Positions 28,317-54,797 of a stretch of DNA of 64,000 nt are shown here, piece after piece. The notes under the pieces are model-generated. The model did not search any database and was not told the DNA's origin. It was given only the letters and a program-made list of their open reading frames with translations. The stretch is from an uncultured bacterium (GTDB taxonomy: Bacteria > Patescibacteriota > Minisyncoccia > UBA6257 > 2-01-FULL-56-20). The stretch lies in contig CAVRXN010000001.1 of the NCBI GenBank assembly GCA_963725235.1, positions 40,041 to 104,040 of the forward strand, in the 5' to 3' direction. Position 1 is the stretch's first letter. Each line of letters opens with the position of its first letter. Both the position numbers and the translations under genes were made by a program.

Positions 28317-28987
28317 AATCGCCGGCTGCGAGTGGAAAGTTATTCTTAAATGTTTTACCGCCGGTAACGCGGCGGGCTTTTGATGAAATTCAAAATCTGA
28401 AATTGCTTGCGAGCGGAGGGTGGTATCTTGCGGGCGGTACGGCGCTTGCACTTCAAGCAGGCCATCGACAATCCGTGGACTTAGATTTTTTTACGCCGGA
28501 GAAAGCATTGAATGAATCGGCAATCGAACGGCGATTGCTTGCGAGCCATCACTGGTCAACCGGATTTATTGAGCAGGGAACAATTTATGGAAAATTTCTC
28601 GACGCCAAAGCCAGCTTTATCTCGTGTCCCTTTTTTGTGCCCGCTGAACCATTTATTACATGCGGCACGATCAGGATTTTATCGGAGCGTGACATCGCTG
28701 TTATGAAAATTATCGCGATGAGCCAGCGCGGGCGTAAACGCGACTTTGTCGACTTATATTGGTACTGCCAGAACCGCGAGCCGCTGCTCGATGTTATTCG
28801 TCGCGTGCCTAAGCAATACCCAGGGCAGGAGCATAATATTCCGCATTTCATTAAGAGCGTTACTTATTTCGATGATGCGGAAGCTGATCCGATGCCGAAA
28901 ATTTTCTTTGATGCGACATGGAGCGGTGTCAAATCTTTTTTCAAGAAAGAAGCGAAAGCAATTACCAAACAATTGTTGTTATCATAA
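28313..28987 (+). CDS. nucleotidyltransferase, AbiEii/DUF1814-like toxin family
   Basis: WYLAGGTALALQAGHRQSVDLDFFTPE matches the family's GG-AL...HR-S-DLDF nucleotidyltransferase motif as I recall it. 224 aa. Confidence 0.65.
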   Translation: MKSPAASGKLFLNVLPPVTRRAFDEIQNLKLLASGGWYLAGGTALALQAGHRQSVDLDFFTPEKALNESAIERRLLASHHWSTGFIEQGTIYGKFLDAKASFISCPFFVPAEPFITCGTIRILSERDIAVMKIIAMSQRGRKRDFVDLYWYCQNREPLLDVIRRVPKQYPGQEHNIPHFIKSVTYFDDAEADPMPKIFFDATWSGVKSFFKKEAKAITKQLLLS

Positions 28988-28989
28988 AC

Positions 28990-31900
28990 ATGGCAGAGAT
29001 CGATCCAAAGCAATATAACCCACGCGAAATTGAGGCGAAGTGGCAGAAAAAGTGGCTGGATGAGAAGGTTTTTGCTGCGCATGATGAGTCCGCGCCGGGC
29101 ACCGCCGCGAAGCCGAAATATTATCAGCTCGAAACGTTTCCGTATCCATCGGGCGCGGGTTTGCACGTTGGCCATCCGAAGGGTTACATTGCCGAGGATA
29201 TTCACGCGCGGTTTATGCGAATGGGCGGCGATCCGACCGCGCGCGGTGGCGTTGGCAAACCACGCGAAGTTTTGTACACCATGGGCTGGGATGCGTTTGG
29301 TTTGCCGACGGAGAACTATGCGATAAAAGTTGGCAAGACGCCGCAGGAGGTGACGCAGGAGAATACTGATAATTTTCGCCGACAGGTGCGAATGTTTGGT
29401 TTGTCGTACGATTGGGATCGCGAGATCAATACCTCGCAGCCGGATTATTATAAGTGGACGCAGTGGTTGTTTATTAAATTGTTTGAGCGTGGGCTGGCAT
29501 ATCGCAAGGCGGCTCGCGTCAATTGGTGCCCGGTTGACCAAACGGTTTTGGCGAATGAGCAGGTGATCAATGGGCATTGCGACCGTTGCGGTAGTGAAAT
29601 CGAGGAGCGCGATATGGAGCAGTGGTTTTTCAAGATTACGGATTACGCGGATCGGTTGCTGGAAGATCTCGACGGTCTTGATTGGCCCGCAGCAACGATC
29701 AAGCGGCAGGAAGATTGGATTGGGAAGAGCGAGGGTGCGGAGATAGAATTCTCTTTGTCGGATAAGCATCATTACGTTTTATTGCACGGATTTACTGGAT
29801 CTCCGGATAATAATTTTTTTCCATGGTTGAAAAAGACGCTCGAAAAGCAGGGGCATACTGTTGAGGTGCCATCTTTGCCAAATACTGATGACCCGGATGT
29901 ATATGAGCAGGTTAAATTTGTTTTGGATAATTGTCATTTTGATGAAAGTACAATTATAGTCGGGCATAGTTTAGGAGCGGTCGTTGCCTTGAAAGTTCTG
30001 GAGCAATTACCGAAGCCTATTTTCAAAACCGTTTTAGCGGCTGGTTTTGCAGAGCCGGGCTTCAAAGATCATGATCGTCCATTCGAAAATAAGTTCGATT
30101 GGAAGTTTGATTTCGCCAGAATTAAAGAGAATGCTCGTGATATTATTCTTTTGCGTGACGTGAACGATACCGCGGTTAAAGCTGAACAGATCAACCATCT
30201 CCATAATTGGGTGGGTGGTATTATAAAAGATATTACTGCGAAAGAGGATCATTTTTGCGCACTTGAAGAGACAGAAATTTTAAAAGCTGCGTTAGATGCA
30301 GTCATAGTTTTCACGACCCGACCAGATACATTATTTGGCGTAACTTATCTCGTGCTTGCGCCAGAGCATCCAGTGGTTACGCGCGTTATATCGCGACTTG
30401 AAAATAAGAGTGACGTACAGAAGTATATTAATGAAACATCACACAAAACGGAGCGAACTCGGCAGGAAGATGCGAAGGATAAGACTGGCGTCGAGTTGAA
30501 AGGCGTGAAGGCGATCAACCCGGCGAACGGCGAGGAAATTCCGATCTGGGTTGCGGATTACGTTTTAGGCTCATACGGAACCGGCGCGATTATGGCCGTG
30601 CCGGCGCATGATGAGCGCGATTTTGCATTTGCAAAGAAGTTTGGGTTGCCGGTGAATGATGTTCTTGAACCCGAAACCGGGCCGGTTTTGCCGAACGAAC
30701 AACCAAGGAAAAGTATCGTAGCTATCGTCGAAGATCCTGAAACAAAAAAATTTCTTACATTGAATTGGGGGTCCAAACTCGGAGGTACATTGTTTATTGG
30801 AGGCGGTAGGGAGGAAGGTGAGGATGAAGTGACTACGGCGATTCGAGAAATTTCTGAGGAGACGGGATATGCGCAAGTTGCTTTCATTGAGAAGACTGGA
30901 GTGATGCATCATCATTATTTTGCTTTCGCGAAAAATGTTTCCCGTAATATCGAGGTTATTGGTCTTCATTTTCGATTGACGGGAAAAGAGACTGTTGCAC
31001 CTCAGCGGGAAGAACAGGAGAAGTTTACGCCTGAATGGCTCAGTAAAGAAGAAGTTCTTGGCAGGATGGAGGATGAAAATCATTTATTAGCATTTCGAGA
31101 GCTAATTTTGGGCGAGATTTATACTGGAAAGGGTTTATTGAAAAATTCCGGCCAGTTCGACGGTCTTGATTCCGAAACCGCAAAATGGAAAATCACCGAA
31201 TTCGTTAAAGGCACCCGCAAAACGCAGTATAGAATTCGCGACTGGTCGGTTTCACGCCAGCGCTATTGGGGCGTGCCGATTCCGATGATTCATTGTCCGG
31301 CCTGCGGTATCGTACCAGTGCCGCTCGAGGAGCTGCCGGTCATTTTGCCGCCCCTCGCGGATTTTCGTCCGAAAGGTATGCCGCCGCTCGCCGCCGTGCC
31401 CGAGTTCATCAACGTTAAATGTCCGAAGTGCGGCAACGCAGAAGCGAAGCGCGATCCGGAAACGCTCGACACGTTCGTCGATTCGTCCTGGTACTATTTG
31501 CGCTACACTGATCCGCATAACGATGCGGCGATTTTCGATCCTGCGAAAGCGGCGCATTGGCTGCCAGTCGACCTCTATGTTATCGGTGCCGAGCACACGG
31601 TTTTGCATTTGCTCTACTCGCGCTTCATCACGAAGTTTTTGCAAGATGAAAAATTGATTAACTTTAGCGAGCCATTTTTGAAACTGCGGCATCAGGGGCT
31701 CATTCGCGGAACCGACGGTGCAAAAATGTCGAAGAGTAAAGGCAACGTCGTTAACCCCGACGAGATCGTTGCCGAATTTGGCGCGGATACGGTTCGGATG
31801 TATGAAATGTTCATGGGGCCATTTGAAGATGGTGCACCATGGGAGCCGAAAAGTATTCTGGGCATAGAACGATTTTTGAAGCGGTTTTGGCGCTATTTCC

Positions 31901-32457
31901 AAGAGCCCGTTGCCAGCAGCCAGCTATCGGCAGAAAAAGAGTCAAGCAAAATTTTACTTCACAAAACGATCAAAAAGGTTGGCGAAGACATCGCAGGATT
32001 TAAATTCAATACGGCGATCTCGGCATTGATGATTTTATTGAATCAACTGGAAACGGCGCAGACGCTCGCTATGGACGATATGAAATCTTTGTTAAAAATC
32101 ATCCATCCCTTCGCGCCGCATATGGCCCAGGAACTTTGGTCGCAGATGACGGCGGCGAACGGTACACCGTTAACCTATCTTGATTTCGAACCGTGGCCGC
32201 AGTATGATTCGGCGCTGATTCGCGAAGAGAAAGTACGGCTCGCGCTCCAAATAAATGGGAAAACGAAAGATGTTATTGAGGTCGCGGCGGATATGCTCGC
32301 AGGCGGCGGCAACATTGCAGGGGGCGACGAAGGTGCAGCCGAGGCAACCGCAAAGCGCCTCGCGCTCGAAAATGATAAGATTAAAAAGACATTAAATGGC
32401 GCTGAGCCGAAGAAGGTTATCTACGTTGATAAGCGGCTCGTGAATATTGTCATTTAA
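28990..32457 (+). CDS. leuS: leucyl-tRNA synthetase with two inserted extra domains (1155 aa)
   Basis: MAEIDPKQYNPREIEAKWQKKW; HVGHPKGY; WIGKSEGAEIEF; TTRPDTLFG; GTGAIMAVPAHDERD; RDWSVSRQRYWGVPIP; KMSKSKGN. Single uninterrupted frame. Confidence 0.95.
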   Translation: MAEIDPKQYNPREIEAKWQKKWLDEKVFAAHDESAPGTAAKPKYYQLETFPYPSGAGLHVGHPKGYIAEDIHARFMRMGGDPTARGGVGKPREVLYTMGWDAFGLPTENYAIKVGKTPQEVTQENTDNFRRQVRMFGLSYDWDREINTSQPDYYKWTQWLFIKLFERGLAYRKAARVNWCPVDQTVLANEQVINGHCDRCGSEIEERDMEQWFFKITDYADRLLEDLDGLDWPAATIKRQEDWIGKSEGAEIEFSLSDKHHYVLLHGFTGSPDNNFFPWLKKTLEKQGHTVEVPSLPNTDDPDVYEQVKFVLDNCHFDESTIIVGHSLGAVVALKVLEQLPKPIFKTVLAAGFAEPGFKDHDRPFENKFDWKFDFARIKENARDIILLRDVNDTAVKAEQINHLHNWVGGIIKDITAKEDHFCALEETEILKAALDAVIVFTTRPDTLFGVTYLVLAPEHPVVTRVISRLENKSDVQKYINETSHKTERTRQEDAKDKTGVELKGVKAINPANGEEIPIWVADYVLGSYGTGAIMAVPAHDERDFAFAKKFGLPVNDVLEPETGPVLPNEQPRKSIVAIVEDPETKKFLTLNWGSKLGGTLFIGGGREEGEDEVTTAIREISEETGYAQVAFIEKTGVMHHHYFAFAKNVSRNIEVIGLHFRLTGKETVAPQREEQEKFTPEWLSKEEVLGRMEDENHLLAFRELILGEIYTGKGLLKNSGQFDGLDSETAKWKITEFVKGTRKTQYRIRDWSVSRQRYWGVPIPMIHCPACGIVPVPLEELPVILPPLADFRPKGMPPLAAVPEFINVKCPKCGNAEAKRDPETLDTFVDSSWYYLRYTDPHNDAAIFDPAKAAHWLPVDLYVIGAEHTVLHLLYSRFITKFLQDEKLINFSEPFLKLRHQGLIRGTDGAKMSKSKGNVVNPDEIVAEFGADTVRMYEMFMGPFEDGAPWEPKSILGIERFLKRFWRYFQEPVASSQLSAEKESSKILLHKTIKKVGEDIAGFKFNTAISALMILLNQLETAQTLAMDDMKSLLKIIHPFAPHMAQELWSQMTAANGTPLTYLDFEPWPQYDSALIREEKVRLALQINGKTKDVIEVAADMLAGGGNIAGGDEGAAEATAKRLALENDKIKKTLNGAEPKKVIYVDKRLVNIVI
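29752..30300 (+). other. in-frame insertion in leuS: alpha/beta serine-hydrolase domain (YdeN/RBBP9-like)
   Basis: HYVLLHGFTGSPDNNFFPWL...TIIVGHSLGAVVALK (GxSxG, 29962-29976)...LLRDVNDTAV...KEDHFCALE. It replaces an approximately 10-aa linker of E. coli LeuRS. AT-richer than the flanks. Confidence 0.75.
30700..31125 (+). other. in-frame insertion in leuS: Nudix domain
   Basis: Perfect Nudix box GGREEGEDEVTTAIREISEETGY at 30802-30870. The block lies between FAKKFGLPVNDV and GKGLLKNSGQFDGL of the LeuRS editing/connective region. Confidence 0.8.
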
Positions 32458-42212: not shown

Positions 42213-43299
42213 TACATCGGTGACACTCTGGTGTTGCCCGATGACCTACAAACTACGGATCAAAAATAGCGGCAAAACGAGGTATGCTGGGCACAACATG
42301 CCTACCTCCCATATCCTGCCGGGGGCGATGGAACTCGCCCGCATTCCAACCCTCAGCCGCGAAGCCAAGAAGCGTCTGGACTGGTTTGATTTCTACCGGG
42401 CAAACAAAGAGAATGCGGCGTTGACCTGCCGCCACTTCGGCATCAGCCGGGAATGTTTTTACGAATGGAAGCGGAGATATGATCCATTCAACCTCTCATC
42501 ACTCGAGGAGAAAAGCCGTGCGCCCAAGAAGACGCGAACGTGGGAAGTGTCACGAATTGAAGAGTTCCGCATCCTGCGTCTGCGTCGCGCCCACATCCGC
42601 TGGGGCAAGATGAAGCTCAGGATTCTGTACGGGCAGGAATATGGCACGCCCATCTCGTCGTGGAAAATCCAGCGAGTGATCGAAAAGCATCAGCTGTATT
42701 TCCATCCGGCGAAGAACGAGAAGCTTGCCAAGAAACGTAAGCAGAACCAGCCCAAAAAACGCATCACGGAGCTCAAGAAGGAGCAACGTGCGGGATTTCT
42801 CGTGGCACTCGACACCGTCGTGCGGCATACGGCCGGACTCAAGCGATATATCCTCACGGGGATCGACGTCCACTCGAAAATCGCCTTTGCGCGGATGTAT
42901 CCGGGGCACGGGTCGAACCATGCGGCTGATTTCCTGAAGCGGATCAATTACCTGTTTGATGCGAAGATCGAGAATCTCCAGACGGACAATGGCAGCGAGT
43001 TTGCAAAATATTTCCGGGAGGCAGCTGCAGAACTTTCGTTGCCGCATTACCATTCGCGTCCGAGAACGCCCAAAGACAATCCCGTGGACGAACGGTTCAA
43101 TGGCACCATCGAGCGGGAATTTCTCCAGCTGGGCAACATGAGTACCGACTGCGATGCCTTCAATCGAAAGATGACCGAGTGGCTGATCGAATACAATTTC
43201 AAGCGTCCCCATCAGACCCTTGGCTACGAGGTACCGGTCGAGTACCATTACAAGAACCAGAAAGTGTCACCGATGTACCCGTCCAGCACAGCCACTTGA
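42213..43299 (+). mobile_element. IS element (IS481-like, single DDE/rve transposase)
   Basis: Perfect 15-bp terminal inverted repeats: TACATCGGTGACACT (42213-42227) and AGTGTCACCGATGTA (43263-43277). The transposase frame runs 22 nt past the right repeat. No target duplication seen. Confidence 0.75.
42298..43299 (+). CDS. IS481-family-like transposase (HTH plus rve integrase core)
   Basis: N-terminal HTH (CRHFGISRECFYEWKRRY), then a DDE core with LQTDNGSEF and FKRPHQTLGY. Confidence 0.85.
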   Translation: MPTSHILPGAMELARIPTLSREAKKRLDWFDFYRANKENAALTCRHFGISRECFYEWKRRYDPFNLSSLEEKSRAPKKTRTWEVSRIEEFRILRLRRAHIRWGKMKLRILYGQEYGTPISSWKIQRVIEKHQLYFHPAKNEKLAKKRKQNQPKKRITELKKEQRAGFLVALDTVVRHTAGLKRYILTGIDVHSKIAFARMYPGHGSNHAADFLKRINYLFDAKIENLQTDNGSEFAKYFREAAAELSLPHYHSRPRTPKDNPVDERFNGTIEREFLQLGNMSTDCDAFNRKMTEWLIEYNFKRPHQTLGYEVPVEYHYKNQKVSPMYPSSTAT

Positions 43300-43326: not shown

Positions 43327-44286
43327 ATGGCAGAACATCGTAAAGGAATTGGAGGATTTACCGTGACAAAAATCACACTGTCGATCGTTTTTTATGTGTT
43401 GCCAGCAGTAATGGCGGCTCATAGTGGAGGAGGTGCAGTATCGGCCGCACGGCCAGCTGCTCCTGCTCGTGTCGGAAATTCTGTAGCTCGATCGAGCTAC
43501 AGCAACACCGCCACTGGTCGCAGTGTCGGTTCTATTGGAGCGAGCCGCTCTGCTGGAGGATTTGGCTTTCGCTTTGGTGGCGGCAATACAAACGCCGCCG
43601 CTCCGCGAGCCACGATTCCGGCACAACGGTTCACCTACACTCCATTGTCGGCGCCACGACTTTCGTCGTCATCGCCAAAAGCGACAGCGGCGCCGGTGGC
43701 ATCTGCGGCAGCTTCTCATGTGACCGTCGTGAAGAACATCACGACGACGAACATTAACTATCGCAACGGCGGATGGGGATGGTCTGGGTGGTATGGTCCA
43801 TGGTGGATCGGCACTTACCCCTTCTACTATTACCCGGAGCAGCTCTACTGGGATCCGCTCCTGAACATTTCGTTTGGCTTCCGACTTCATCATCGGGGTA
43901 CGAAGGAATGTCCAACTGGGATTCAGTTCGACCTGAAACCCGCTGGCAAGTATAAGGAGTGGGCGAAAGGCGGTGTCGTGCAGGAGGTTGATCCCGAAAC
44001 CAACCAAATCAGCATTATCGGCGACGTTGGCAAGGGTGCGAAGGATCCGATTCCACTGGCGCCGGGATTCCATGCTATTCAAGTAACGTTTCCGGATGGG
44101 CGAGTGCTCAAGTTGCCGGTAAGCGTTTCCGAAGGCATAACGCCTGTACCGATCGCGTTCGATAGATCGGAGGACGCAGTTGTTGCTCCGCAGATTCAGC
44201 AGGCGCCAGTCCAGCAGTCGACGACGACTCAGTCGACAGCGCAGCCCGTAGCTGCGGGCGATTCTGCTCCGCGCCTTGATCAGTAA
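43327..44286 (+). CDS. secreted hypothetical protein with Gly/Ala/Ser-rich region, aromatic-rich segment and PEGA-like C-terminal fold
   Basis: ORF track, 319 aa. GGAGG lies upstream. Signal/TM ITLSIVFYVLPAVMA. The opposing 265-aa ORF is Arg-rich and was rejected. Confidence 0.65.
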   Translation: MAEHRKGIGGFTVTKITLSIVFYVLPAVMAAHSGGGAVSAARPAAPARVGNSVARSSYSNTATGRSVGSIGASRSAGGFGFRFGGGNTNAAAPRATIPAQRFTYTPLSAPRLSSSSPKATAAPVASAAASHVTVVKNITTTNINYRNGGWGWSGWYGPWWIGTYPFYYYPEQLYWDPLLNISFGFRLHHRGTKECPTGIQFDLKPAGKYKEWAKGGVVQEVDPETNQISIIGDVGKGAKDPIPLAPGFHAIQVTFPDGRVLKLPVSVSEGITPVPIAFDRSEDAVVAPQIQQAPVQQSTTTQSTAQPVAAGDSAPRLDQ

Positions 44287-44298
44287 CAGATAGATAAC

Positions 44299-44336
44299 AA
44301 GCCCAGCCATGAAATTCGGCTGGGCTTTTTCTTTTT
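44299..44336 (+). terminator. intrinsic terminator
   Basis: AAGCCCAGCC-ATGAAATTC-GGCTGGGCTT followed by TTTCTTTTTG. Confidence 0.75.
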
Positions 44337-44363
44337 GCGTCGCCCCTATTCTCCGTTGCAGAT

Positions 44364-44486
44364 CTACTTCCTCTTCCGCTTCGCCGCTTTTGCTTCGAGC
44401 ATCACGCGTTTCGCCTCCAAGCGTTTCTTGGTTTTTTTTGAATTGCTTTTTTGGCTCGTGATCCAACCGCCTCGTTTTGGTGGCAT
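44364..44486 (-). CDS. possible 40-aa highly basic peptide (MPPKRGGWITSQKSNSKKTKKRLEAKRVMLEAKAAKRKRK)
   Basis: Hand-found small ORF downstream of 44511..44837. No independent support. Confidence 0.25.
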   Translation of the reverse strand: MPPKRGGWITSQKSNSKKTKKRLEAKRVMLEAKAAKRKRK

Positions 44487-44510
44487 GATGATGGTGGGTT
44501 AATTTAATGT

Positions 44511-44837
44511 TTATTTAATAATCGAACCTTCGATGTTTTCGCTGGTTCGTCCGATGCGACCTGAGATTCTCTCTTTGCTCGCCGCAACTGCCGGCTGTTT
44601 CTCGAGTGCGAAGCGGAGTTGGCCTCCGGAATCGAGCCGATAGGAGAGTGTCACTTTGTCGCCGGCGCGGTTTTTAAAAACCAGTTTCGATATCCCGTTC
44701 AGCGCCGGCGCTTTGCTGACATAGCTCGCGATGCCATCCTCTTTTTCCCGGACCAGCCGTTTCGCCTCAAAATCCAGTTTCTGGTTGAGCTCTTTCAGCG
44801 TAACTGGCGTATTATGCTTGGCTTTCGGCTTGTTCAT
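44511..44837 (-). CDS. hypothetical protein (108 aa)
   Basis: ORF track; protein-like composition. Confidence 0.5.
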   Translation of the reverse strand: MNKPKAKHNTPVTLKELNQKLDFEAKRLVREKEDGIASYVSKAPALNGISKLVFKNRAGDKVTLSYRLDSGGQLRFALEKQPAVAASKERISGRIGRTSENIEGSIIK

Positions 44838-45022
44838 GAGGTTTTCAGTATAGCACGGGGTGGGGGAATTTGCCAGATTGATTATCTACGCCTGGTTTGT
44901 TAACCTATGCGAAGTATCCGAAGAAACCGGGAGGGCTGCATGGCAAAATGAGTATATTTATATCCCAGATTTGAAGGAATATGCCAACGCATAAATCTAC
45001 CCCATCCCTCGCATCACTATTT

Positions 45023-45469
45023 CTATCTCACGATTTGCAAAAGCCAGAAGAGCAAGATTAACGCATACGTATTGATAAGAAGTGTCCGCAACCAATGTGT
45101 TTTGAGTATTTTTGTAAGATAGGGACTTTTAGAACCGCGGGGGTCTTGGCTCAACTTCGCTTGCCACTGTCCCCAGAATATCGCGGTAAGCGCTAGCGAT
45201 AAGGCTTGTGTAATGAATACGCCCCAGATTGCCCACTCGGGGGAACCGATGGGGTGATACCAGATGAGTATGATAGAGCCAATGAGCGCAAGTCCAACGG
45301 GTATGAAAATCCAGTATGGGAGTTTTCTCCAATGTACCTCCTGCACCCTACGGAAATCGCTTCCGACCAGCTTCCAAGAACGGAAGATGTCCACTTCCAT
45401 CGCCCAAATCGTGCCGACATTGTAGAAGCCAAGGGCGAGATTGAGTACAAGAAAAACTAGTGGATTCAT
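45023..45469 (-). CDS. 4-TM integral membrane protein
   Basis: ORF track, 148 aa. Lies in an AT-rich region. Confidence 0.6.
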   Translation of the reverse strand: MNPLVFLVLNLALGFYNVGTIWAMEVDIFRSWKLVGSDFRRVQEVHWRKLPYWIFIPVGLALIGSIILIWYHPIGSPEWAIWGVFITQALSLALTAIFWGQWQAKLSQDPRGSKSPYLTKILKTHWLRTLLINTYALILLFWLLQIVR

Positions 45470-45506
45470 CTCGTTAGTGAACGGCCTTTATCTTATTCTA
45501 ACGCGA

Positions 45507-45938
45507 CTATTTTAGCTTGGTATATTTCATATCAAAATCGTGCTCCCATTTCTTGCCATCGAATGATTTTTCCCAGTATGCCGTGATTGTCTTTTTATCC
45601 TTACTTACCCTACCTTCATATCGCTGTGAGAATCCAGGAGAATTGCGCCATATTTTCCAGGTGTTATTTTTGAGACTCATCTCATAGACCCTGGAAACAC
45701 CGCGGGAATCGGAATAAAGGATCGTATAATTCTCGATTTTTTCATCCCGTCCAATGAGCCATATAGCTTCCTTGCCTTGCTCCATAACAAAAAATGCGCC
45801 GTCTTCGACCCATTTAAAAAGAACGCGCCCGTGTATGACAGCTTTCGGATTGGGAAGGAAAGCGGCATGCGAAAGCTCCATGTCCCATTCACCGATAAAT
45901 GGTGCAAGCTGTTTGAGAGTTGGGTTTACTTTTTTCAT
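45507..45938 (-). CDS. hypothetical soluble protein (143 aa)
   Basis: ORF track. Lies in an AT-rich region. No family assigned. Confidence 0.6.
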   Translation of the reverse strand: MKKVNPTLKQLAPFIGEWDMELSHAAFLPNPKAVIHGRVLFKWVEDGAFFVMEQGKEAIWLIGRDEKIENYTILYSDSRGVSRVYEMSLKNNTWKIWRNSPGFSQRYEGRVSKDKKTITAYWEKSFDGKKWEHDFDMKYTKLK

Positions 45939-46033
45939 ACAATTATTATACGTTATCCTTCTAACAATTCTTTCGTTCTACGTCCACGATGGGGTACAAA
46001 AATTAGTGCGATAAAATCTATGAAAAAATGTTG

Positions 46034-46395
46034 CTCCGCGACCAGGACTCGAACCTGGAACCTTATCCTTACACATAGCCCCGATGTTTCCATCAGGAGT
46101 GGACTATATCATCTTCCATGGACCGACTCGTCAGACCGGTTGGTTCATGGAAGCGAGGCGCTTCCGGCGGCGTGAGCGGAATGTTCCGTTCAGCCGACGT
46201 ACTCCCTTGCGGGATAGTCTCTACACCTTCCCAGCGACTGCTGGGCTTGGCTCGGGATTACCAATCGATACGGCACCGGCCGCACCGCTAGGCTTCCCCG
46301 AATTCACCTCGTTCTTCGACCTGGATTGCTCCAGGAAGCTGCGTATGCCTTTCGGCGCGCCACAGGGATTTGCTCTACCATTGAGCTATCGCGGA
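46034..46395 (-). tRNA. tRNA-Asn(GUU) interrupted by a group I intron
   Basis: The 5' exon TCCGCGATAGCTCAATGGTAGAGCAAATCCCTGT (46395-46362) and 3' exon TAAGGATAAGGTTCCAGGTTCGAGTCCTGGTCGCGGAG (46071-46034) make a 72-nt cloverleaf. It has acceptor TCCGCGA/TCGCGGA, D arm GCTC/GAGC, anticodon loop CTGTTAA, T arm CCAGG-TTCGAGT-CCTGG, and U1 plus G73 as in E. coli tRNA-Asn. Confidence 0.85.
46072..46361 (-). ncRNA. group I intron (tRNA-type, IC3-like), 290 nt, no ORF
   Basis: Contains AATTCGGGGAAGCCTAG, AATCCCGAGCCAAGCC and GGAAGGTGTAGAGACTA, which match core strings I recall from the Azoarcus tRNA-Ile and Anabaena tRNA-Leu introns. It ends ...GCTATGTG (terminal G). Exon CUGU can pair with the internal GCAG, giving U-G at the splice site. 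Confidence 0.8.
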
Positions 46396-46526
46396 ATGTT
46401 TGAACTCGAATGGAACCAAACGTGAGTTCTGAAACATAATATCAAAATCAGTCGGGTTTTGCAAAGACGGTGCAAAACTGATATGATGCGGTTGGCATTT
46501 TACCACACATTCAGAGGAGAGAAGAC

Positions 46527-47150
46527 GTGAAAGCTACTATTCCGATTGGTGTATTTTTCGCTTTTACCCTGCTGGTTCAGGCAGAGGAGAGCTCAATTGT
46601 TTCGCCGCCGTCATCACCGGGGTGCATCGAAGCAGGTATGTTGATTGGCAGGGATGGCGCCGCACTCGGACCCTCCGTGATGATTGAAGGTCACCCATGC
46701 TGGGCCAAAAGTATATTATTACAGAAAATCGGCGTGTATGCGTATGCTGGCACATCGAGTGTCTCCGGATACCAAGACCAAGGTGCTACGGCAAATTTTT
46801 CCGATCGTACACTCGGAATCGGCGTCGACTGGCTCGCGTTACCGTTTTGGGGTTTCTCGGCCGGACCTTTTTACCAGATCGCCTATTACGGCAGCAAAGT
46901 CCATGCGACGTATGTCGATTCCCAATATGGTGTAACGGTTAACTATCGAAGCAGTGACAAAGGACCACTCACGACGCTCGGACTCGATATCGAACATCCC
47001 ATCTGGAACGGAGGAACTGCTTTTGGTCGGTTCGGGAGGGACTTCGGAAATAACTTCGCAACGGACAATGCCGGAGGGTTTTCGGTCAACGGCGGCGTGA
47101 AAATTGATCCCGTGAAGATGTTCAAGCAAGTGGGAAAGTTTTTCCGATAG
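46527..47150 (+). CDS. secreted beta-rich hypothetical protein (GTG start)
   Basis: Signal peptide MKATIPIGVFFAFTLLVQA. Alternating Gly/aromatic beta-strand-like pattern. GAGGAG lies upstream. Confidence 0.55.
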   Translation: MKATIPIGVFFAFTLLVQAEESSIVSPPSSPGCIEAGMLIGRDGAALGPSVMIEGHPCWAKSILLQKIGVYAYAGTSSVSGYQDQGATANFSDRTLGIGVDWLALPFWGFSAGPFYQIAYYGSKVHATYVDSQYGVTVNYRSSDKGPLTTLGLDIEHPIWNGGTAFGRFGRDFGNNFATDNAGGFSVNGGVKIDPVKMFKQVGKFFR

Positions 47151-47168
47151 TCTGTTTGGTAGTTCGTT

Positions 47169-47206
47169 TGCCTCGGGCCATAGTTGGTCCGAGGCATTTT
47201 TATTTC
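47169..47206 (+). terminator. intrinsic terminator
   Basis: GCCTCGG-N12-CCGAGGC followed by ATTTTTATTT. Confidence 0.75.
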
Positions 47207-47221
47207 GTGCGCGGCGTCAAT

Positions 47222-47860
47222 TTACCCACTTGTCCCGGGGAACAAAACATTCAAGCCGTTGTTGGACGAGGTTGCGACTTCAAAGAAAATGTTCGACGCA
47301 CCGCCGGTGGTAAATAATAATGGAAAGGTGGTTGTGGCGAGCGTGAAGGCGGTTGTTTGGTCCGTGTACGTTTCGTTTGGCGCACCGTTACAGTTGCCGG
47401 AGTCGGGGAACGTGAACGACGCGGGGTTCGGCGGGTCGAGGTCGCCTTCCTCATCCGCGACGAGCCGGACGTTCAGCGGCACGCATTCGGGCGACTGGCC
47501 GGTCTGGACGGTCAGCGTAAATGTCATCTGGGTGCCTTCGAGCGAAACGGCGGTGATCGAAATTTTCGAGCCGCCTTCGGGCCAGCTGAGCGGGGGAGTT
47601 GCGAAGGAGGTGCCGAGGGTTTCGCCGGGGCCGGTATCGGTATCGGTTGAGCTCGCACCGTTGGCGCCGCCGACGAGTCCGATTGTGCCGCTTGCCGTCG
47701 ATGTCGGCAGAATGAGTTGGGTCGACGTCGCGATCGGCGTATCCGTACCAACGCCGCCGTTTACGGAGTATGTCCCATTCGCCGGCCCGAAGACCGCGAA
47801 ATAGGCGAACAGTCCAAGGACGACGGCCAGCGAGCCCAAGAAAATCAAAGTCGTTTTCAT
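47222..47860 (-). CDS. secreted hypothetical protein (212 aa)
   Basis: Signal/TM MKTTLIFLGSLAVVLGLFAYF. Thr/Gly-rich mature part. Confidence 0.65.
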   Translation of the reverse strand: MKTTLIFLGSLAVVLGLFAYFAVFGPANGTYSVNGGVGTDTPIATSTQLILPTSTASGTIGLVGGANGASSTDTDTGPGETLGTSFATPPLSWPEGGSKISITAVSLEGTQMTFTLTVQTGQSPECVPLNVRLVADEEGDLDPPNPASFTFPDSGNCNGAPNETYTDQTTAFTLATTTFPLLFTTGGASNIFFEVATSSNNGLNVLFPGTSG

Positions 47861-47967: not shown

Positions 47968-48982
47968 CTATTCTTCTGATGAAACCGACTTTTCCTTCTT
48001 CTTGTCGGTCGCGTGTCCGTCTACCTCATAATTCGTGTTCTGCGATTCGAAGAAGTTGACGAGTTCGAGGACGTCGGTTGCGCCGCTCATCCACTTCGCC
48101 GGATTTTTGACTTTATAATGCGCACCGATGCCGAGCTCTTCGAGCCGGCGGTCGGCGACATACTGGACATACTGGTTGACGTAGTCGGCGTTCAAGCCGA
48201 GGATGCCGTGCGGGAAAAGATCCTTGTTGTATGCAGTTTCGAGCTCGACGCCTTCGATGACAATATTTTTAATTTCATTCGCGAACTCGGTCGGTCAAGA
48301 TTTCCGGATTCTCTTCGAGAATGTTGAGGATGAGCTTCATACCGAATTTTAAATGAAGCGACTCGTCGCGCAAGACCCAGTTGATCATCGAGCCGAAGTT
48401 GCGGAGCTGGTTGCGCTGGCGGAACGAGAGGACGACCATGAAGCCGGAGTAGAACCAGATGCCTTCCATGACGACGTTCGTCGCGATCAGGTTGCGGATG
48501 AAATCTTTTTTGCCTTCGGCTGTTTCGACGTCGAGCGTGTCTTCCATCATCCGTTTCATGTAGCGGTTGATGTATGCTTCCTTCGCTTGCATCGAGGGCT
48601 TGTCGAGGTGAAGGTTGTATAGATTTTCGCGGTCGAGCGGGAAGGTTTCGAGGACGTACTCGAACGCGACGCAATGATTCGCTTCCTCCCACATCTGCTT
48701 CGCGAGATATAACGTACACTCGGGCGATTTCAAGTATGGATAAATGCCGAGCGCGATCGAACGATTGACGATCAGCTCCGCCGGATTGAAGAATGCCATC
48801 AAAAATTTCACGGCATGCCGCTCGTCCTCGGTCATTTTCTCCCAATCGTCGAGATCTTCTTTCAGCGCGATCTCATGCGGGAACCACGTATTGCGAACCG
48901 CCTGCTGATAGAGGTCATAAGCCCACTGATATTTAATTGGATGGAGATTAATGTCCTCCGGTGACGCTTTGCCGATAAGCAT
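47968..48982 (-). CDS. nrdB: class I ribonucleotide reductase beta subunit, one frame disruption near 48290
   Basis: MLIGKASPEDINLHPIKYQWAYDLY. Di-iron ExxH motifs WEEANHCVAF and LRDESLHLKF. C-terminal piece in ORF 47968..48195. Start chosen at 48982 (an upstream ATG at 49039 overlaps a TATAAT). Confidence 0.85.
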
Positions 48983-49296
48983 GGATTTTGTAGCGCCGCT
49001 CTCGCGGCCGCGGTTATTTTGGTTGCGACGTAAACACATTATAACTCAAAAAAGTTTTGCACAGCAATTGACAGGGGATGAAAATTTGCTTATTCCTGTA
49101 TCCAGGAGATTGAAATGAAACTTCTGTAAGGATTTATTTAATGCTTTGACGATGGTGGTTATTGATTTGACATGGATTTTTGGCTGCTGTACCATCTAGT
49201 TAAGGTGGTGCTTCTGCATGAAATGCGGGAGTTCTCTGCGTGTCATACAAATGGCTGCTTCGGCAGCCATTTGTATTATTCAGGGGGATAAAAAAG

Positions 49297-49313
49297 TTTA
49301 GAAAGATTTAATG
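49297..49313 (+). repeat. 17-nt motif TTTAGAAAGATTTAATG (copy 2)
   Basis: Exact match to 14845-14861. Confidence 0.6.
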
Positions 49314-49332
49314 GGGTATTTGCTATAAGTAG

Positions 49333-49360
49333 GAAAATCGCCGCAATTGCGGCGATTTTC
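49333..49360. terminator. palindromic hairpin GAAAATCGCCGC-AATT-GCGGCGATTTTC just after the nrdA stop
   Basis: Sequence read. The GC core has flanking A/T runs on both sides (bidirectional form). Confidence 0.6.
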
Positions 49361-49377
49361 TGTTCTAGCGGTGATTA

Positions 49378-52203
49378 TTATGCACAGCCGTCACAAATAG
49401 TATCTTCTGATGGATCGCTCGGAGGCATGATGGCTGGGCGTTTTTTGGCTGACTGAGCGGCTTGGGTTTGGGTCGGCTGGCTTGGCTGTATCGGCTGTAC
49501 GAATGATGCTGAGGCGAGTTCTATTTTTGGTTGTTCCATTTTCGGCTGATTAGCGGTTACAGGGGTTGTCGCCGTAGTCACGCTGCCTGTCGCGATCGCC
49601 GGGTTCATCCCGGTGACCTGCGAGAAGCCGACCGGCTTGCCGCCTGCGGGCTTCTGTTGGGCCGCTTGGGCAATTTGCGCCGGAGTCGCTTGTACCGATG
49701 TAGCCGCGGTTGCACTAACCTCTGCGGGCGCCTCAGCCGGCGCGTCCGCAGTTTTCGATTCCGAGATCATCGTCGCAACCGTAACCTGTTCCTCGACGAC
49801 AACGGTTTCAACAACTGACGACATCACCGACGCAAATCCTTTCTTGCCCATCGCCTGGCCTTTGTTGACGTTGACGGTCGACTGTTCGGCGGTATGCCGC
49901 GGCTTCATGTGGAGGTAGTACGTCGTCTTCACGCCTTTCCGCCACGCGGTCGAATAAATTTCCATCGTTTCGCCGATATCGCGCGTTTCGAGATACATGT
50001 TGCGCGAGAGCGCTTGGTCGATCCATTTCTGCGCGCGCGCGGCGACTTCGATGAACGCGCCGGGCGACGTGCTGAATGAGGTCTTATAAATATCTTTGAT
50101 GTGCTGGGGGATTGCTGAAATATTTGTTAGGTCGCCCTGTTCGGCGATGATATCTTCGCGAACTTTCTCCCAGAAGCCCATATTTTTCAAATCATTCACC
50201 AGGTTGTGGTTAAGGTCGAGATATTTTCCGGAAATTTTATTCCGCGAGAAGACCTGCGCGAAGCGGGGATCGATGCCCGGCGTTGTGCCGGCAACGAGGC
50301 CGATGTTCGCGTTCGGTGCGACGGCCATCAACGTTGCGTTGCGCATGCCCTTCTTCGACTTTCGCGCGCAGTGCATCCCAATTCAATCCGCGATAGCGCT
50401 GAACCTTTCGAAACCGTGAGCGGCACGCCGCGATCGGCTTCGAGGACTTCGATCGTATCCATCGGCACCATGCCTTTCGACCATCCCGAGCCCTGGAAGT
50501 TTTTGTATGAACCGCGCTCGGCGGCGAGGTTGGCGCTTTCATCGATCGCAACGTAGCTTACGAATTCGAACACTTTGTCGGCGAAATCCCACGCATGTTC
50601 CGTGTCGTATCCCATGCCGAGCTGTTCGAGCATGTCGCAGAATCCCATGACGCCCATGCCGATCGCGCGGTTCTCCTGGTCGGAGCGCGTCGCTTCTTCG
50701 ATGCCCATCTTATTGATGTCGATCAGGTTGTCGAGCTGGCGGACGGCATAGCGGATGCTCTCTTCGAGTTTTTCCCAGTCGATTTGTTTGTGGTTGACGT
50801 GGACGGCGAGGTTCAGAGAGGCGAGGTTGCAGACGGCGATGTTGTCTTTATCCTGCGGGAGGCAGATTTCGGTGCAAAGGTTCGACATATGGATCGTGCC
50901 GGTATTGTTGTTCAGTGCGCGCAGATTGATCGCGTCTTTCCATGTGAGCCAGGGATGCGATGTGCCCTGCAGCTGGACCAAAATCTGGCGATATTGCTCT
51001 TCGGCTGGCACTTTCTTGAAAACGCGCAGTTTGCCGGCTTCGGCCATCTCTATATATTCCGCATAGCGCTTGCTGAACGCGGCGCCGTAGAGCTCGACGA
51101 GGTCCGGCGTTTCTTTCGGGTCGAACATGTACCACATTTCATGGTTTTCGACGCGCCGCATGAACTCATCGGAGATAAACGCCGCCGTGTCGGCCGTGCG
51201 CATGCGCATGTAGTCGTCGCCGGCATTGTTCTTCCAGTCGAGGAATTCCGGGAAAATCGATGTGCCAGTTCTCCATATAGAAACAGAGCGCGCCTTTTTT
51301 CTTGCCGCCGCGCTGGACGGCGCGGATCGCGGTATCAATGATTTTTGCGAATGGCGTTGGGCCCGTCGATGCGCCGTTGTTCGATCCGAGCGGGGAACCG
51401 GTCGCGCGAAGTTTCGTTACGGACAGTCCGATGCCGCCGGAATATTTTGAAAGCATGATGACGTCATGGACGGATTTCGCGATATGTTCCATGTCATCTT
51501 CCATCTGCATGAGGTAGCAATTCGAAAGTGTTGGGCGCGTCGTGCCGGCGCCGAGGTTCGTCGAACCGGCGGCGAGATATTCAAGCTTCGACATCTTGCT
51601 GTAAAACTTTTTTGCCCAGAGCGTCGGATTTTTTTCATTGAACGAAAGTCCCATCGCAACGCGCATGAAAAAATATTGCGGCGTCTCGTTCGGTTTGCCA
51701 TCTTTTTTATCTTTCAACGAATAGCGATCGAGGAACGATGAAAGTCCGGCGTAGATGAAAATTCATCGCGGCCGAGGTCGAGAGCGGCCGCGAGTTCCTT
51801 CAGATTAAATTTTTCGAGCATCCGCGGATCGAGAATGTTCGCCTCGACGCCGCTTTTTATCCATTCCGGGAAAAATTCGCGATGTTTGCGCGCGAGGAGC
51901 GCCGGATTGTTCTCGTAATCTTCGAGGACGCGGCGATAAACCGTTTTTAGTAAGCAATCGCATCGCGACTTTATCGTATTCGATGTCTTCTTTTATATTT
52001 TGGACCGCCGCATTGATCGTCGCCTGATCCATTTCCTCCGTCGTGATGCCATCATAGAGCGTTAGGCGCGTTTCGGTTGCGATCTGCGTCACCATGCCGA
52101 TCGGATCTTCCATCCCGATGCACGCGCGTTCGATCGACCGGTTGATCATGTCGGCATTGAATGGTTCGCGCGTGCCGTCGCGCTTGGTGATGGTGAGCTC
52201 CAT
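49378..52203 (-). CDS. nrdA: class I ribonucleotide reductase alpha subunit, about 4 frame disruptions, long low-complexity C-terminal linker
   Basis: ATP-cone MELTITKRDGTREPFNADMI (start 52203), SNLCTEICLP, TTYYLHMKP, terminal ICDGCA cysteine pair. The pieces are ORFs 51805.., 51166.., 50328.. and 49378.., plus an unlisted stretch 51720-51960. Confidence 0.85.
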
Positions 52204-52303
52204 ACTCGTTTTTGGATTGATTAAAAGTTTGTTAACTCGACGTAAGAACATTTTACCACTAAACTGGTTATCCACAGCAAGTTCACGTATACTACTAGTA
52301 CCT

Positions 52304-53800
52304 ATGTCTGACAAAAATTCCAAAATCCCGACCATTTTCGTCGTTTTGGGGGTTACCGGCGACCTGACGGCCAAGAAAATCGCCCCGGCGCTTTTCAATT
52401 TATTTGAGAAAAAAATGCTGCCCCCGAAATTCGAGTTCGTCGGTGTTTCGCGCCGGGATTGGGGCGACGCGGAACTGCGCGAACATATCCGGGCGATCCT
52501 GCATGTCAAAGCGCCGCATGCGAGCGAGGCGTCGATTGGAAAATTTCTGAAGCTCGTTACGTATGGCAAGGTTCGGTTCGATACGCCGGGCGATTATGAA
52601 GTGTTGAATGATAAGTTGCGCGCAATCGATGATCGCTGGGGTATGTGTTCGAACAAATTATTTTACTTGTCGGTGCCGCCAGAATTTTATGATGGCATTT
52701 TTGAAAACCTGCATGCGAGCGGGCTGACTGCTCCGTGTTCGCCGGAAGAAGGATGGACGCGCGTCGTTGTTGAAAAACCATTCGGGAGCGATGAGAAGAC
52801 GGCGAAAGAGCTCGACGAGCATCTCGCGCGGCTGTTCCGCGAGGAGCAGATCTATCGTATCGACCATTATTTGGCGAAAGAGATGTTGCAGAACATTCTT
52901 GCATTCCGGTTTGGGAATAATTTGTTTGAACGCGAGTGGGGTGCCGAGACCATCGAGGCGATTAATATAAAATTGCATGAGAGCATCGGCGCGGAAGATC
53001 GCGGAAGTTTTTATGAGAACGTTGGCGCGCTTCGCGATGTTGGACAAAATCATTTGTTGCAAATGCTCGCGCTCGTCACGATGGAGCGGCCGAACGGATA
53101 TACGGTTACGGATGGCGGCAGTGCCGCCGGTAATTCGCGGGCGATCCGCGAAGCGCGCGCAAAATTATTGGAGCAATTGGTCATTCCATCTGTTCGCGAT
53201 GCTGCCGCGAATTCTTTTCGTGCACAATATGAAGGTTATAGAAAAATTAAAGGTGTTGCATCGCGGTCGGATGTTGAAACCTATTTTCGCGTGAAAGGAT
53301 TTTTGTCGGGTGAGCGATGGGAAGGTGTGCCGATCGCGATGGAATCCGGTAAGCGATTGGGGAAGCCGTTGAAAGAAATTGAGGTTGTCTTTAAAGGTGG
53401 AACAAACCGCATCATTATCCATCTTGAACCGAAAGAGGGTATCACGATAACTTTTATTTCGAAAAAACCGGGGCATTCGCTCGCCGTCGAAGAGCGGTCA
53501 TTGTCGTTTGATTTTCGGGAGGGTGCTCCCAGCGGCAGCGTTCAATATGTCGCAGAATATGAAAAATTAATTTTGGACTGCATCGCCGGCGACCAGACGT
53601 TATTCATTTCGAGTGAGGAAATACGGGCGATGTGGCGCTTTACGGATCCTTTTATAGAGGCGTGGGGCAAAAACCTCGTACCGTTGCGTCGGTATGCCCC
53701 GGACTCTGCTGCTATCGCGGCGGAAGCAGCGGTTTTAATGGATCAACAACGGCGGCAGGCGGCGGCTCGACGGTTGGGCGGTGCGCCCTCTATTAATAGA
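52304..53800 (+). CDS. zwf: glucose-6-phosphate dehydrogenase (reads through into gnd)
   Basis: MSDKNSKIPTIFVVLGVTGDLTAKK, VVEKPFG, IYRIDHYLAKE signature. Confidence 0.9.
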
Positions 53801-54797
53801 GTGATCGGATTGTATGGCCTGGGGAAAATGGGCGCCGGGCTCGCGCGGAACATGCATGACCATGGCTGGCACGTTGTCGTTGCAAATCGATCATTGGAGT
53901 CGGTCGCGACACTCGAAGCAGAAGGATTCGATGGGGCTCGAACGACGGAGGAGTTATTGGAAAAAATTTCGTTATCGCCTTCAACGGGCACATCACGCGC
54001 GCCGCGCGTTGTGTGGTTGATGATAACCGCCGGCAAACCGGTTGATGAATTTTTGTTTGGGAAGTCGGGCGCGCGCGGCAACGGCGGCTTGGCTGCTCAG
54101 TTACGCCGCGGCGATATCGTTATCGATGGCGGCAACTCATTCTTCGAAGATTCATCGCGCCGCGCAAAATTGCTCGCTCGCCGCGGTATAAAGTTTTTGG
54201 ACGTTGGCGTTTCGGGCGGACCGGCCGGCGCGCGCAACGGTGCATGTATGATGATCGGCGGCGACCGGGTTTCGTTCGCAGCGCTCGAAGAACTTTTTGC
54301 GGTGACCTGTGTTTCTGGCGGCTACGGATATTTCGGTTTGGCTGGCGCGGGGCATTTCGTGAAAATGGTACATAACGGCATCGAGTACGGCATGATGCAA
54401 TCGATCGCGGAAGGTTTTGCGCTGATGAAACGCGCGCCGTTCAAGCTCGACCTCGCGCGCGTCGCGCATCTTTATAACCATGGTAGTGTCATCGAGTCGC
54501 GGTTGGTGGGATGGATGGAAAACGCGTATAAAAATTTTGGGCAGGATTTGAAAAATGTTTCGTCGTCTGTCGCATATACCGGAGAAGGCGAATGGACCGT
54601 GCAGCACCGGGAAAAAGTGGAAAATGAAATTGCCGGCGATCGAGGATTCGTTTAAGTTTCGGGTCGCGTCTGGCGCGTTGTCAAAAAAAGCGAAGCGGTC
54701 GCCCGGCGATGTCTACATGGGGAAAATTTTATCGGCACTCCGAAATCAATTCGGGGGACACTCGATCGAAAGCAAAAAGCGTATAATAAAGATATGA
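53801..54797 (+). CDS. gnd: 6-phosphogluconate dehydrogenase (short decarboxylating-like form), in frame with zwf, one frame disruption near 54600
   Basis: (V/M)IGLYGLGKMGAGLARNM, GAGHFVKMVHNGIEYGMMQ. The C-terminal LPAIEDSFKFRVAS...ILSALRNQFGGH continues in ORF 54555..54797. Confidence 0.8.

Follow-up and report, generated by a model that had tools for sequence, protein, structure and literature searches.

Bacterial tRNA/intron settings were raised from 4 classical ones to 21, 17 of them new, by means of tFind in the catalogue of Williams (2020; bioRxiv 10.1101/2020.01.27.920355, as far as accessible), including a class 'Asn.4Ug' that appears under the same name in the accessible part of PMC13011429 and that tFind sometimes mislabels as Thr.2Ug. 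According to Nakagawa et al. (2026, mSystems; PMC13011429), the tRNA-Asn(GUU) gene split between anticodon nucleotides 35 and 36 (35/36) harbors the commonest tRNA intron in Patescibacteria, making up 15 of 22 intron-bearing tRNA genes from 95 complete genomes, and 28 introns were found at 35/36 across 4,934 complete genomes, 19 of them in Patescibacteria and the others in Cyanobacteriota, Nitrospirota, Bacillota_A, Bipolaricaulota, and Pseudomonadota, with 25 of the 28 classed as group IA. The same study reported that ARAGORN and tFind often call such genes tRNA-Thr(UGU) split at 33/34 because of a two-base shift, that in Patescibacteria a tRNA-Asn gene with an intron is usually the only one present, that four Patescibacteria Asn introns encode HNH endonucleases, and that the Asn intron of GCA_016700035.1 (Saccharimonadia) was precisely spliced in vitro at 35/36 upon addition of GTP, a reaction blocked in an omega-G-to-C mutant. 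The present analysis concerns a group I intron in the same position of a tRNA-Asn(GUU) gene, located on the minus strand (46395-46034) of a 64-kb stretch of contig CAVRXN010000001.1 from an uncultured bacterium, the whole of which is referred to as the window.

The Rfam scan of the whole window returned one Intron_gpI match (46459-46080, minus strand; 59.9 bits, E = 1.1e-12), which covers the full model length and exceeds the gathering score of RF00028 (50 bits), supporting the group I intron that the initial annotation had recognized by eye. The exon halves proposed there (46395-46362 and 46071-46034, separated by 290 nucleotides (nt)) were exact on the minus strand, and the three core strings quoted, AAUUCGGGGAAGCCUAG, AAUCCCGAGCCAAGCC, and GGAAGGUGUAGAGACUA, were all found inside the intron. 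The intron starts with GGCGCG and ends in ...CUAUGUG, its final base being the expected terminal G (omega-G, 46072). In addition, the predicted pairing of exon CUGU with an internal GCAG (intron 20-23) holds, with the U-G wobble of the 5' splice site formed by U35 and G20, and this guide (as GCAGC) is invariant in 42 of 42 tabulated family members. No sense-strand open reading frame (ORF) of at least 80 amino acids (aa) was detected in the intron and two overlapping antisense ORFs had no Pfam match, in agreement with the earlier statement that it has no ORF; an intron-encoded homing endonuclease, as expected of a homing intron, was thus not found in the window copy.

When joined (46362/46071), the exons form a 73-nt cloverleaf that ARAGORN calls tRNA-Asn(GUU), although no tRNA was called at the locus by ARAGORN in its ordinary mode. 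The joined exons carry U1-A72 and G73, which had been taken beforehand as fitting Asn, and the same holds for the hosts of the 34 metagenomic family members described below and for all published family hosts in the accessible tables; the UCC... start and the ...GGAG end are likewise common to all tRNA-Asn hosts of the intron family. The G73 discriminator is an identity element of tRNA-Asn. The 3' CCA is not encoded, since G73 is followed by CAA (46031-46033) and then a T-run, and no canonical terminator hairpin was found downstream of the tRNA-Asn gene. Upstream, a sigma-70-like sequence (Table 1) probably serves as the promoter of the split tRNA gene.

The insertion site was resolved by an orthologous locus without the intron. 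A homologue with 83% identity to the product of the divergent neighbor gene (46527-47150) was located on a JGI metagenome contig (locus L240), which shows about 84% DNA identity to the window and shares its gene order (two hypothetical genes, nrdB, nrdA, a G6PD-6PGD fusion, PGI, and glnA). In L240, a promoter nearly base-for-base the same as that of the window (TTGCAA, 17 nt, TG-extended TATTAT) is followed by an uninterrupted tRNA (...GCAAAUCCCUGUUAAGGAUAAGG...), and this tRNA-Asn(GUU) carries ...AAAUCCCUGU|UAAGGAUAAGG... without an insert, which equals the window exons joined at U35|U36. The 5' exon agrees base for base with the corresponding portion of the uninterrupted tRNA, the 3' exon lies in a 41-nt match of 100% identity, and in BLAST the matches of L240 to the window break off exactly at 46362 and resume at 46071; placements of the insert other than 35/36 fail to reproduce the genomic sequence. 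A second homologue of the neighbor gene (L314) was uninformative, lying in another gene context with no tRNA. The intron may have been gained recently by the lineage of the window, or the lineage of L240 may have lost it precisely. The window and L240 represent a filled-site/empty-site pair with 100% identical exons in close Paceibacteria-like genomes, which could help to date the gain or loss.

Table 1. Window positions of the split tRNA-Asn(GUU) gene, its putative promoter, and the structural elements of its intron
Feature	Position	Strand	Description
Promoter, sigma-70-like (predicted)	46436..46464	-	-35 TTGCAA (46464-46459), 17-nt spacer, TG-extended -10 TATTAT (46441-46436); consensus scan
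tRNA-Asn 5' exon, UCCGCGAUAGCUCAAUGGUAGAGCAAAUCCCUGU, 34 nt	46362..46395	-	Nucleotides 1-35: acceptor, D arm, 5' anticodon stem, C32 U33 G34 U35
Group I intron, 290 nt, without homing endonuclease gene	46072..46361	-	Rfam RF00028; insert missing at orthologous locus L240
P1	46339..46365	-	Exon C32-U35 (46365-46362) and intron G1 pair with intron 19-23 CGCAG (46343-46339)
P2 hairpin CCUGGA-GCAA-UCCAGG	46320..46335	-	Compensatory changes in 6/6 pairs; 100% of cells paired
P3 5' strand CGAGGUG	46305..46311	-	Partner 46160-46154; compensatory changes in 3/7 pairs; 100% of cells paired
P4 (UCGGGG/UCCCGA) around P5/P5a hairpin (46293-46260)	46252..46301	-	Alignment helices 4-5
P6 (GCC/GGU) and P6a (CCCAGC-AGUC-GCUGGG)	46225..46251	-	P6a compensatory changes in 7/7 pairs; helices 6-7
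P7 5' strand GACUA, guanosine-binding helix	46215..46219	-	Partner UAGUC 46106-46102; pseudoknot helix 8
P7.1 hairpin UCCC-GCAA-GGGA	46203..46214	-	Compensatory variants UCUC/GAGA, UCCA/UGGA
P7.2 extended hairpin region	46164..46199	-	RNAalifold helix; compensatory changes in 6/6 pairs
P3 3' strand CGCCUCG	46154..46160	-	RNAalifold helix 3
P8 hairpin CUUCCAUG...CAUGGAAG	46113..46153	-	Rfam alignment and helix 11
J8/7 and P7 3' strand AUGAUA-UAGUC	46102..46112	-	Agrees with Rfam consensus GAUAUAGUC; ATAGTCC invariant in family
P9 hairpin with GAAA loop (46099-46079), then tail CUAUGUG to omega-G	46072..46099	-	Helix 12
tRNA-Asn 3' exon, 38 nt, UAAGGAUAAGG...UCGCGGAG	46034..46071	-	U36 to G73; matches L240

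Comparison with the described introns places the window copy within the Asn 35/36 family. Seven published members in the accessible part of Table S5 of PMC13011429 (three from Nitrospirota, one from Bipolaricaulota, and three from Cyanobacteriota) align with it from the guide to omega-G at 53-60% identity and have in common with it GCAGC, P2, GGUGAAUUC, AGAGACUA, AGCGCC, AUAGUCC, and a GAAA-capped P9. The Patescibacteria members in the accessible rows of Tables S3 and S4 are closer (64-66% identity, with 64% for GCA_016700035.1), so that the identity to the described members seen there ranges overall from 53% to 66% over 222-258 aligned nt. A search by nhmmer with a profile of the full family minus the window sequence gave E = 7e-42 with a sole match in the window (46342-46072), and a profile of the published members only detected the same single locus (E = 1.3e-17, model positions 1-237). 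Moreover, when metagenomes were scanned with a pattern tailored to the window variant, 73 loci were obtained in total, of which 34 were tRNA-Asn(GUU) genes split at 35/36, and the nearest relatives of the window intron, including those at L290 and L308, showed about 76-77% identity over about 150 nt. The window sequence itself was not among the inspected rows of the PMC13011429 tables. The window intron is therefore one more member of a family that has already been described and validated biochemically, and its novelty is low. The initial annotation had considered an Asn(GUU) host interrupted at 35/36 unusual; its premise that bacterial hosts are confined to tRNA-Leu, -fMet, -Ile, and -Arg is outdated because Asn hosts are described both by Williams (2020; 'Asn.4Ug') and by Nakagawa et al. 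(2026), who found them to be the majority in Patescibacteria.

The fold of the intron was tested with RNAalifold on a 36-sequence alignment, to which the P7 pseudoknot and P7.1 were added by hand. RNAalifold recovered P2, P3, P4, P5, P6, P6a, P7.2, P8, and P9, with compensatory double changes in 34 of 49 pairs. In the final model, which comprises 58 pairs in 12 helices, 94.6% of the cells were paired compared with 35-48% when the partners were slid by 1-3 columns, the covariation score was 0.512 compared with at most 0.125 in the slid controls, and double changes occurred in 36 of the 58 pairs; none of 500 shuffles matched the observed structure values. P7 gave no covariation signal because it is invariant, being 100% paired in 36 of 36 sequences. 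For P1, C32-U33-G34-U35 pairs with intron G23-A22-C21-G20, with the wobble at U35 and U33 opposite A, and the helix extension covaries between intron +1 and the base 5' of the guide G (G:C, A:U, and G-U). The P1 loop of the window copy is 17 nt long and contains a GCC-GAAA-GGC hairpin (46356-46347). Furthermore, P7.1 is common to the closest relatives and Paceibacteria GCA_026016225.1, P7.2 is variable across the family and longer in the window copy than in its relatives, and the 3' tail of the family has the consensus AUAAAGUG.

As such, the locus is best read as one tRNA-Asn(GUU) gene with a sigma-70-type promoter, in which a group I ribozyme of 290 nt, belonging to the Asn.4Ug family and probably an immobile copy, separates U35 from U36, a reading to which a probability of about 90% is given. 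In the proposed mechanism, the guide GCAG would pair with exon C32-U33-G34-U35 to form P1 with its U35-G wobble, and an exogenous guanosine bound in P7 would attack after U35. Omega-G (46072) would then take over the guanosine site, the 3'-OH of U35 would attack after omega-G, and U35 would be joined to U36, restoring the anticodon loop CUGUUAA. The window copy is likely to splice in this manner by analogy with its characterized homologue, and the window gene is presumably the only tRNA-Asn gene of its genome. Given that Patescibacteria with an intron in tRNA-Asn typically have no other copy of the gene, splicing would be essential in the window genome. Also, since the HNH homing endonuclease gene is lacking, the window copy is probably immobile and would persist only by splicing.

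Several points weigh against this reading. Splicing of the window copy is extrapolated from GCA_016700035.1, a homologue of 64% identity; P5 of the window copy contains a U-U mismatch; P10, formed with the 3' exon, comprises no more than 2 bp in the window and varies across the family; only 64 kb of the genome are in view, so that a second, intact tRNA-Asn may lie elsewhere; nrdA, nrdB, and the G6PD-6PGD gene are frameshifted, which points to assembly indel errors or to a decaying genome; and the host phylum was assigned from the names of homologues (66-70% identity) of one protein, MetRS. Alternatively, the intron might be decayed and no longer spliced, leaving a tRNA pseudogene while a second tRNA-Asn in the remainder of the genome does the work; the loss of the homing endonuclease gene in the window copy, the frameshifted neighboring genes, and the limited view of the genome speak for such decay. 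However, the helices are all intact in the window copy with the single exception in P5, the invariant family positions are all kept, and no sign of frameshift-type damage was seen in the intron helices. The exons are identical to those of the functional-looking L240 orthologue, the promoter is conserved, and a sole Asn gene is the rule for intron-bearing Patescibacteria (PMC13011429), all of which makes a decayed intron quite improbable. A tRNA-Thr(UGU) host with the intron two bases upstream (33/34; 46363-46074) has even less in its favor, although ARAGORN calls Thr(UGU) on the raw sequence in its intron mode and on the exons joined two bases upstream, this alternative join folds as a cloverleaf, and the corresponding intron likewise follows U and ends in G. 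As the L240 orthologue is a natural empty site that reads CCCUGUUAAGG, the 35/36 join, and not CCCUUGUAAGG, the insertion is fixed at 35/36 and the Thr(UGU) reading excluded, in accordance with the choice of the Asn(GUU) junction in the initial annotation. In P1, moreover, U33 lies opposite A and the U-G wobble occurs at U35 only, the U1-A72 pair and G73 agree with every tRNA-Asn of the family, the 2-nt shift is a documented systematic miscall of ARAGORN and tFind, and in vitro splicing of a family member gave the Asn junction (PMC13011429); a Thr host is accordingly given next to no weight.

It could also be argued that the window harbors an IC3 intron of the Azoarcus tRNA-Ile or Anabaena tRNA-Leu type that moved into a new tRNA host. 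The likeness to these two introns drawn from the sequence at the outset stands for the P3-P7 core, as the strings AAUUCGGGGAAGCC, CCGAGCCAAGC, and GAAGGUGUAGAGACUA also occur in the IC3 tRNA introns in the accessible part of Table S5 (PMC13011429). A composite pattern on the IC3-shared strings was found at no fewer than 119 genome loci in many phyla, with most of the hosts listed being Met/Ile2, Leu, and Arg tRNA genes, and the window intron fits this pattern. The IC3 introns of Azoarcus tRNA-Ile(CAU) and Anabaena/Nostoc tRNA-Leu(UAA) resemble the window intron in being bacterial, in interrupting the anticodon loop, in their chemistry and P3-P7 core motifs, and in usually having no ORF, whereas they have other guides, no P7.1/P7.2, and, for Leu, the site 34/35. 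The site of the Azoarcus tRNA-Ile intron is 36/37. The IC3 type itself fits poorly. IC3 introns are characterized by a compact core in which J7/3 is a short joiner and P7.1/P7.2 are missing; this is not the case in the window intron, in which the Rfam alignment revealed an insertion of about 52-54 nt between GACUA and P3' that folds as P7.1 (46214-46203) and P7.2 (46199-46164) and is supported by covariation; the IC3 rows have just a short joiner at this place. In the Michel-Westhof classification, a pair of helices, P7.1 and P7.2, lying between the 5' strand of P7 and P3' is a mark of subgroup IA. These elements are among the class-defining ones (PMC3984707), and a group IA nrdF intron has been drawn with both. 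In addition, the window intron shows full-length homology, including the guide, P2, P3, and the 3' tail, to introns that are classed as IA1/IA2 by subgroup models in the accessible part of Table S5 (PMC13011429). Among the at least 119 core-pattern loci listed, none matched the window intron beyond the P4-P7 segment of about 50 nt, and no Asn host or close relative was present among those listed in the genome contigs; in a core-motif scan of viral contigs (CGAGCCAAGC...GAAGGTGTAGAGACTA), the hosts were mostly tRNA-Leu(UAA) among the matches listed. In retrospect, GGTGAATTC would have been a better basis for the genome-contig pattern than the composite core strings. The presence of P7.1/P7.2 and the IA1/IA2 labels of the homologues thus argue against an IC3 affinity, which is considered unlikely, and the window intron appears to be IA-like, with the subgroup carried over from its IA1/IA2 homologues together with P7.1/P7.2.

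Beyond splicing as such, the endonuclease-free intron might be kept as a regulatory checkpoint in what is perhaps the sole tRNA-Asn gene, where GTP/Mg2+-dependent splicing could gate the supply of tRNA-Asn and the modification of its wobble base by nucleotide status; this is held to be a slim prospect, and Nakagawa et al. likewise speculated on a regulatory role of such introns in reduced genomes (PMC13011429). A gene for tRNA-guanine transglycosylase (TGT) is located in the same window (6188-7318, plus strand), and the intron splits the U33-G34-U35 motif recognized by this enzyme. The guide GCAG targets C32-U33-G34-U35 (46365-46362 in the window) of queuosine-family tRNAs (Asn, Asp, and Tyr; all reported hosts), CUGU being common to GUN-anticodon tRNAs. 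A link between splicing and TGT modification is pure speculation.

Regarding the host, the window is chromosomal, as it contains genes for ATP synthase gamma, MetRS, LeuRS, TGT, and Nramp. The possibility of a large phage, raised by the ribonucleotide reductase genes and the abundance of unknown ORFs, was abandoned once these housekeeping genes were found, and BLAST against a phage collection gave no relevant match. All homologues of MetRS bearing organism names (66-70% identity) belonged to Paceibacterota, Minisyncoccia, or Pacebacteria, and 'Candidatus Paceibacterota' is placed by NCBI within the phylum Minisyncoccota, part of the GTDB Patescibacteria; the host is thus probably a member of the Paceibacteria, phylum Patescibacteria. 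The six successive ORFs around the tRNA gene (43327-47860; 319, 108, 148, 143, 207, and 206 aa) had no Pfam or PHROG match, and the 207-aa protein had only two homologues among 5.8 billion proteins, in keeping with a lineage of which few members have been sampled. An ORF (42220-43299, plus strand) with an rve integrase core and a helix-turn-helix, situated some 3 kb from the tRNA gene, is consistent with the transposase of an insertion sequence element.

Frame switches were observed in nrdA (near 51250 and near 50361-50400), nrdB (near 48290), and the G6PD-6PGD gene (near 54606), within 47971-52203 and 52304-54776, whereas the L240 orthologues are intact (928, 337, and 838 aa for nrdA, nrdB, and G6PD-6PGD, respectively). 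Further introns or inteins in the fragmented nrdA and nrdB were rejected, as the DNA is collinear with the intact orthologues, with frame switches only, and there is no second Rfam intron in the window; the indels reflect errors of long-read assembly or genuine pseudogenes. In the fusion gene, G6PD and the N-terminal portion of 6-phosphogluconate dehydrogenase share a single ORF (52094-54655, plus strand), an arrangement kept in L240 (6043-8559). The LeuRS ORF (28918-32457, plus strand; 1179 aa) has an unusual architecture, with Pfam serine hydrolase/alpha-beta hydrolase (aa 286-429) and NUDIX (aa 597-717) domains inserted among those for synthetase activity, editing, and anticodon binding.

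The chief value of the locus is one of annotation. Standard tRNA finders miss the gene or call it tRNA-Thr(UGU), so that the genome would seem to be without tRNA-Asn and completeness estimates would suffer; the intron model rescues this gene, while scientifically it is one more example of a family catalogued in 2020 and validated in 2026. Its relatives illustrate how the family changes. Half of the metagenomic Asn introns (17 of 34) are 548-593 nt long, and 15 of these 17 (L290, L308, L277, L243, and 11 more) carry, within the P1 loop, an ORF of 75-133 aa on the sense strand that shows CxxC...HH...CANCH motifs; the two ORFs tested, those of L290 and L277, matched Pfam HNH (PF01844) with 21.6 and 27.4 bits, respectively (cut-off 21.4). 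Moreover, about 30 of the 73 metagenome loci (L241, L244, L245, L248, and about 25 more among L241-L313) were tRNA-Phe(GAA) genes split at 33/34, after U33, by the same core with another guide. Because the same core occurs in tRNA-Asn and tRNA-Phe with different guides, the intron lineage has evidently been retargeted by guide change, and its occurrence in Asn and Phe genes, with or without an HNH gene, shows how the family switches targets.

Among known systems, the class 'Asn.4Ug' of Williams (2020) shares with the window intron the U at -1, the omega G, anticodon-loop position 4 (35/36), and the tRNA-Asn host; that work is a catalogue, and the likeness is one of class definition rather than of individual sequences. 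The HNH-bearing Asn 35/36 introns (L290, L308, L299, and others; GCA_023898525.1 in PMC13011429) have an ORF in the P1 loop, in contrast to the 17-nt ORF-free loop of the window intron, and the hosts at L290, L308, and L299 carry the same exon sequence CCCUGU|UAAGGA; the window copy is thus an endonuclease-free derivative or relative. The tRNA-Phe(GAA) sister introns, including that of GCA_016699995.1 (Doudnabacteria; PMC13011429), have the core GGUGAAUUCGGGGAAGCC...GGUGUAGAGACUA...AGCGCC as in the window and differ in host tRNA, site, and guide, GGUCC pairing with exon GGACU. The Patescibacteria Asn 35/36 introns (e.g., GCA_016700035.1 and GCA_026016225.1) agree with the window intron in host tRNA, site, guide GCAG, the ARAGORN miscall as Thr(UGU), and the likely host phylum, as well as in the helix order P2-P3-P4-P5-P6-P7-P7.1-P7.2-P3'-P8-P7'-P9 with a GAAA L9 and a ...GUG tail. 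They differ in that P7.2, P5a, and P8 are longer in the window and in the P4-P6-P7 strands, which read CCGCAGCCAAG...GGUUCAGAGACUA in the Patescibacteria Asn introns and take the variant form CCGAGCCAAG...GGUGUAGAGACUA in the window, while the P7.1 hairpin of GCA_026016225.1 (Paceibacteria), UAUCCCG(G/C)AAGGGAGUA, is nearly identical to that of the window.

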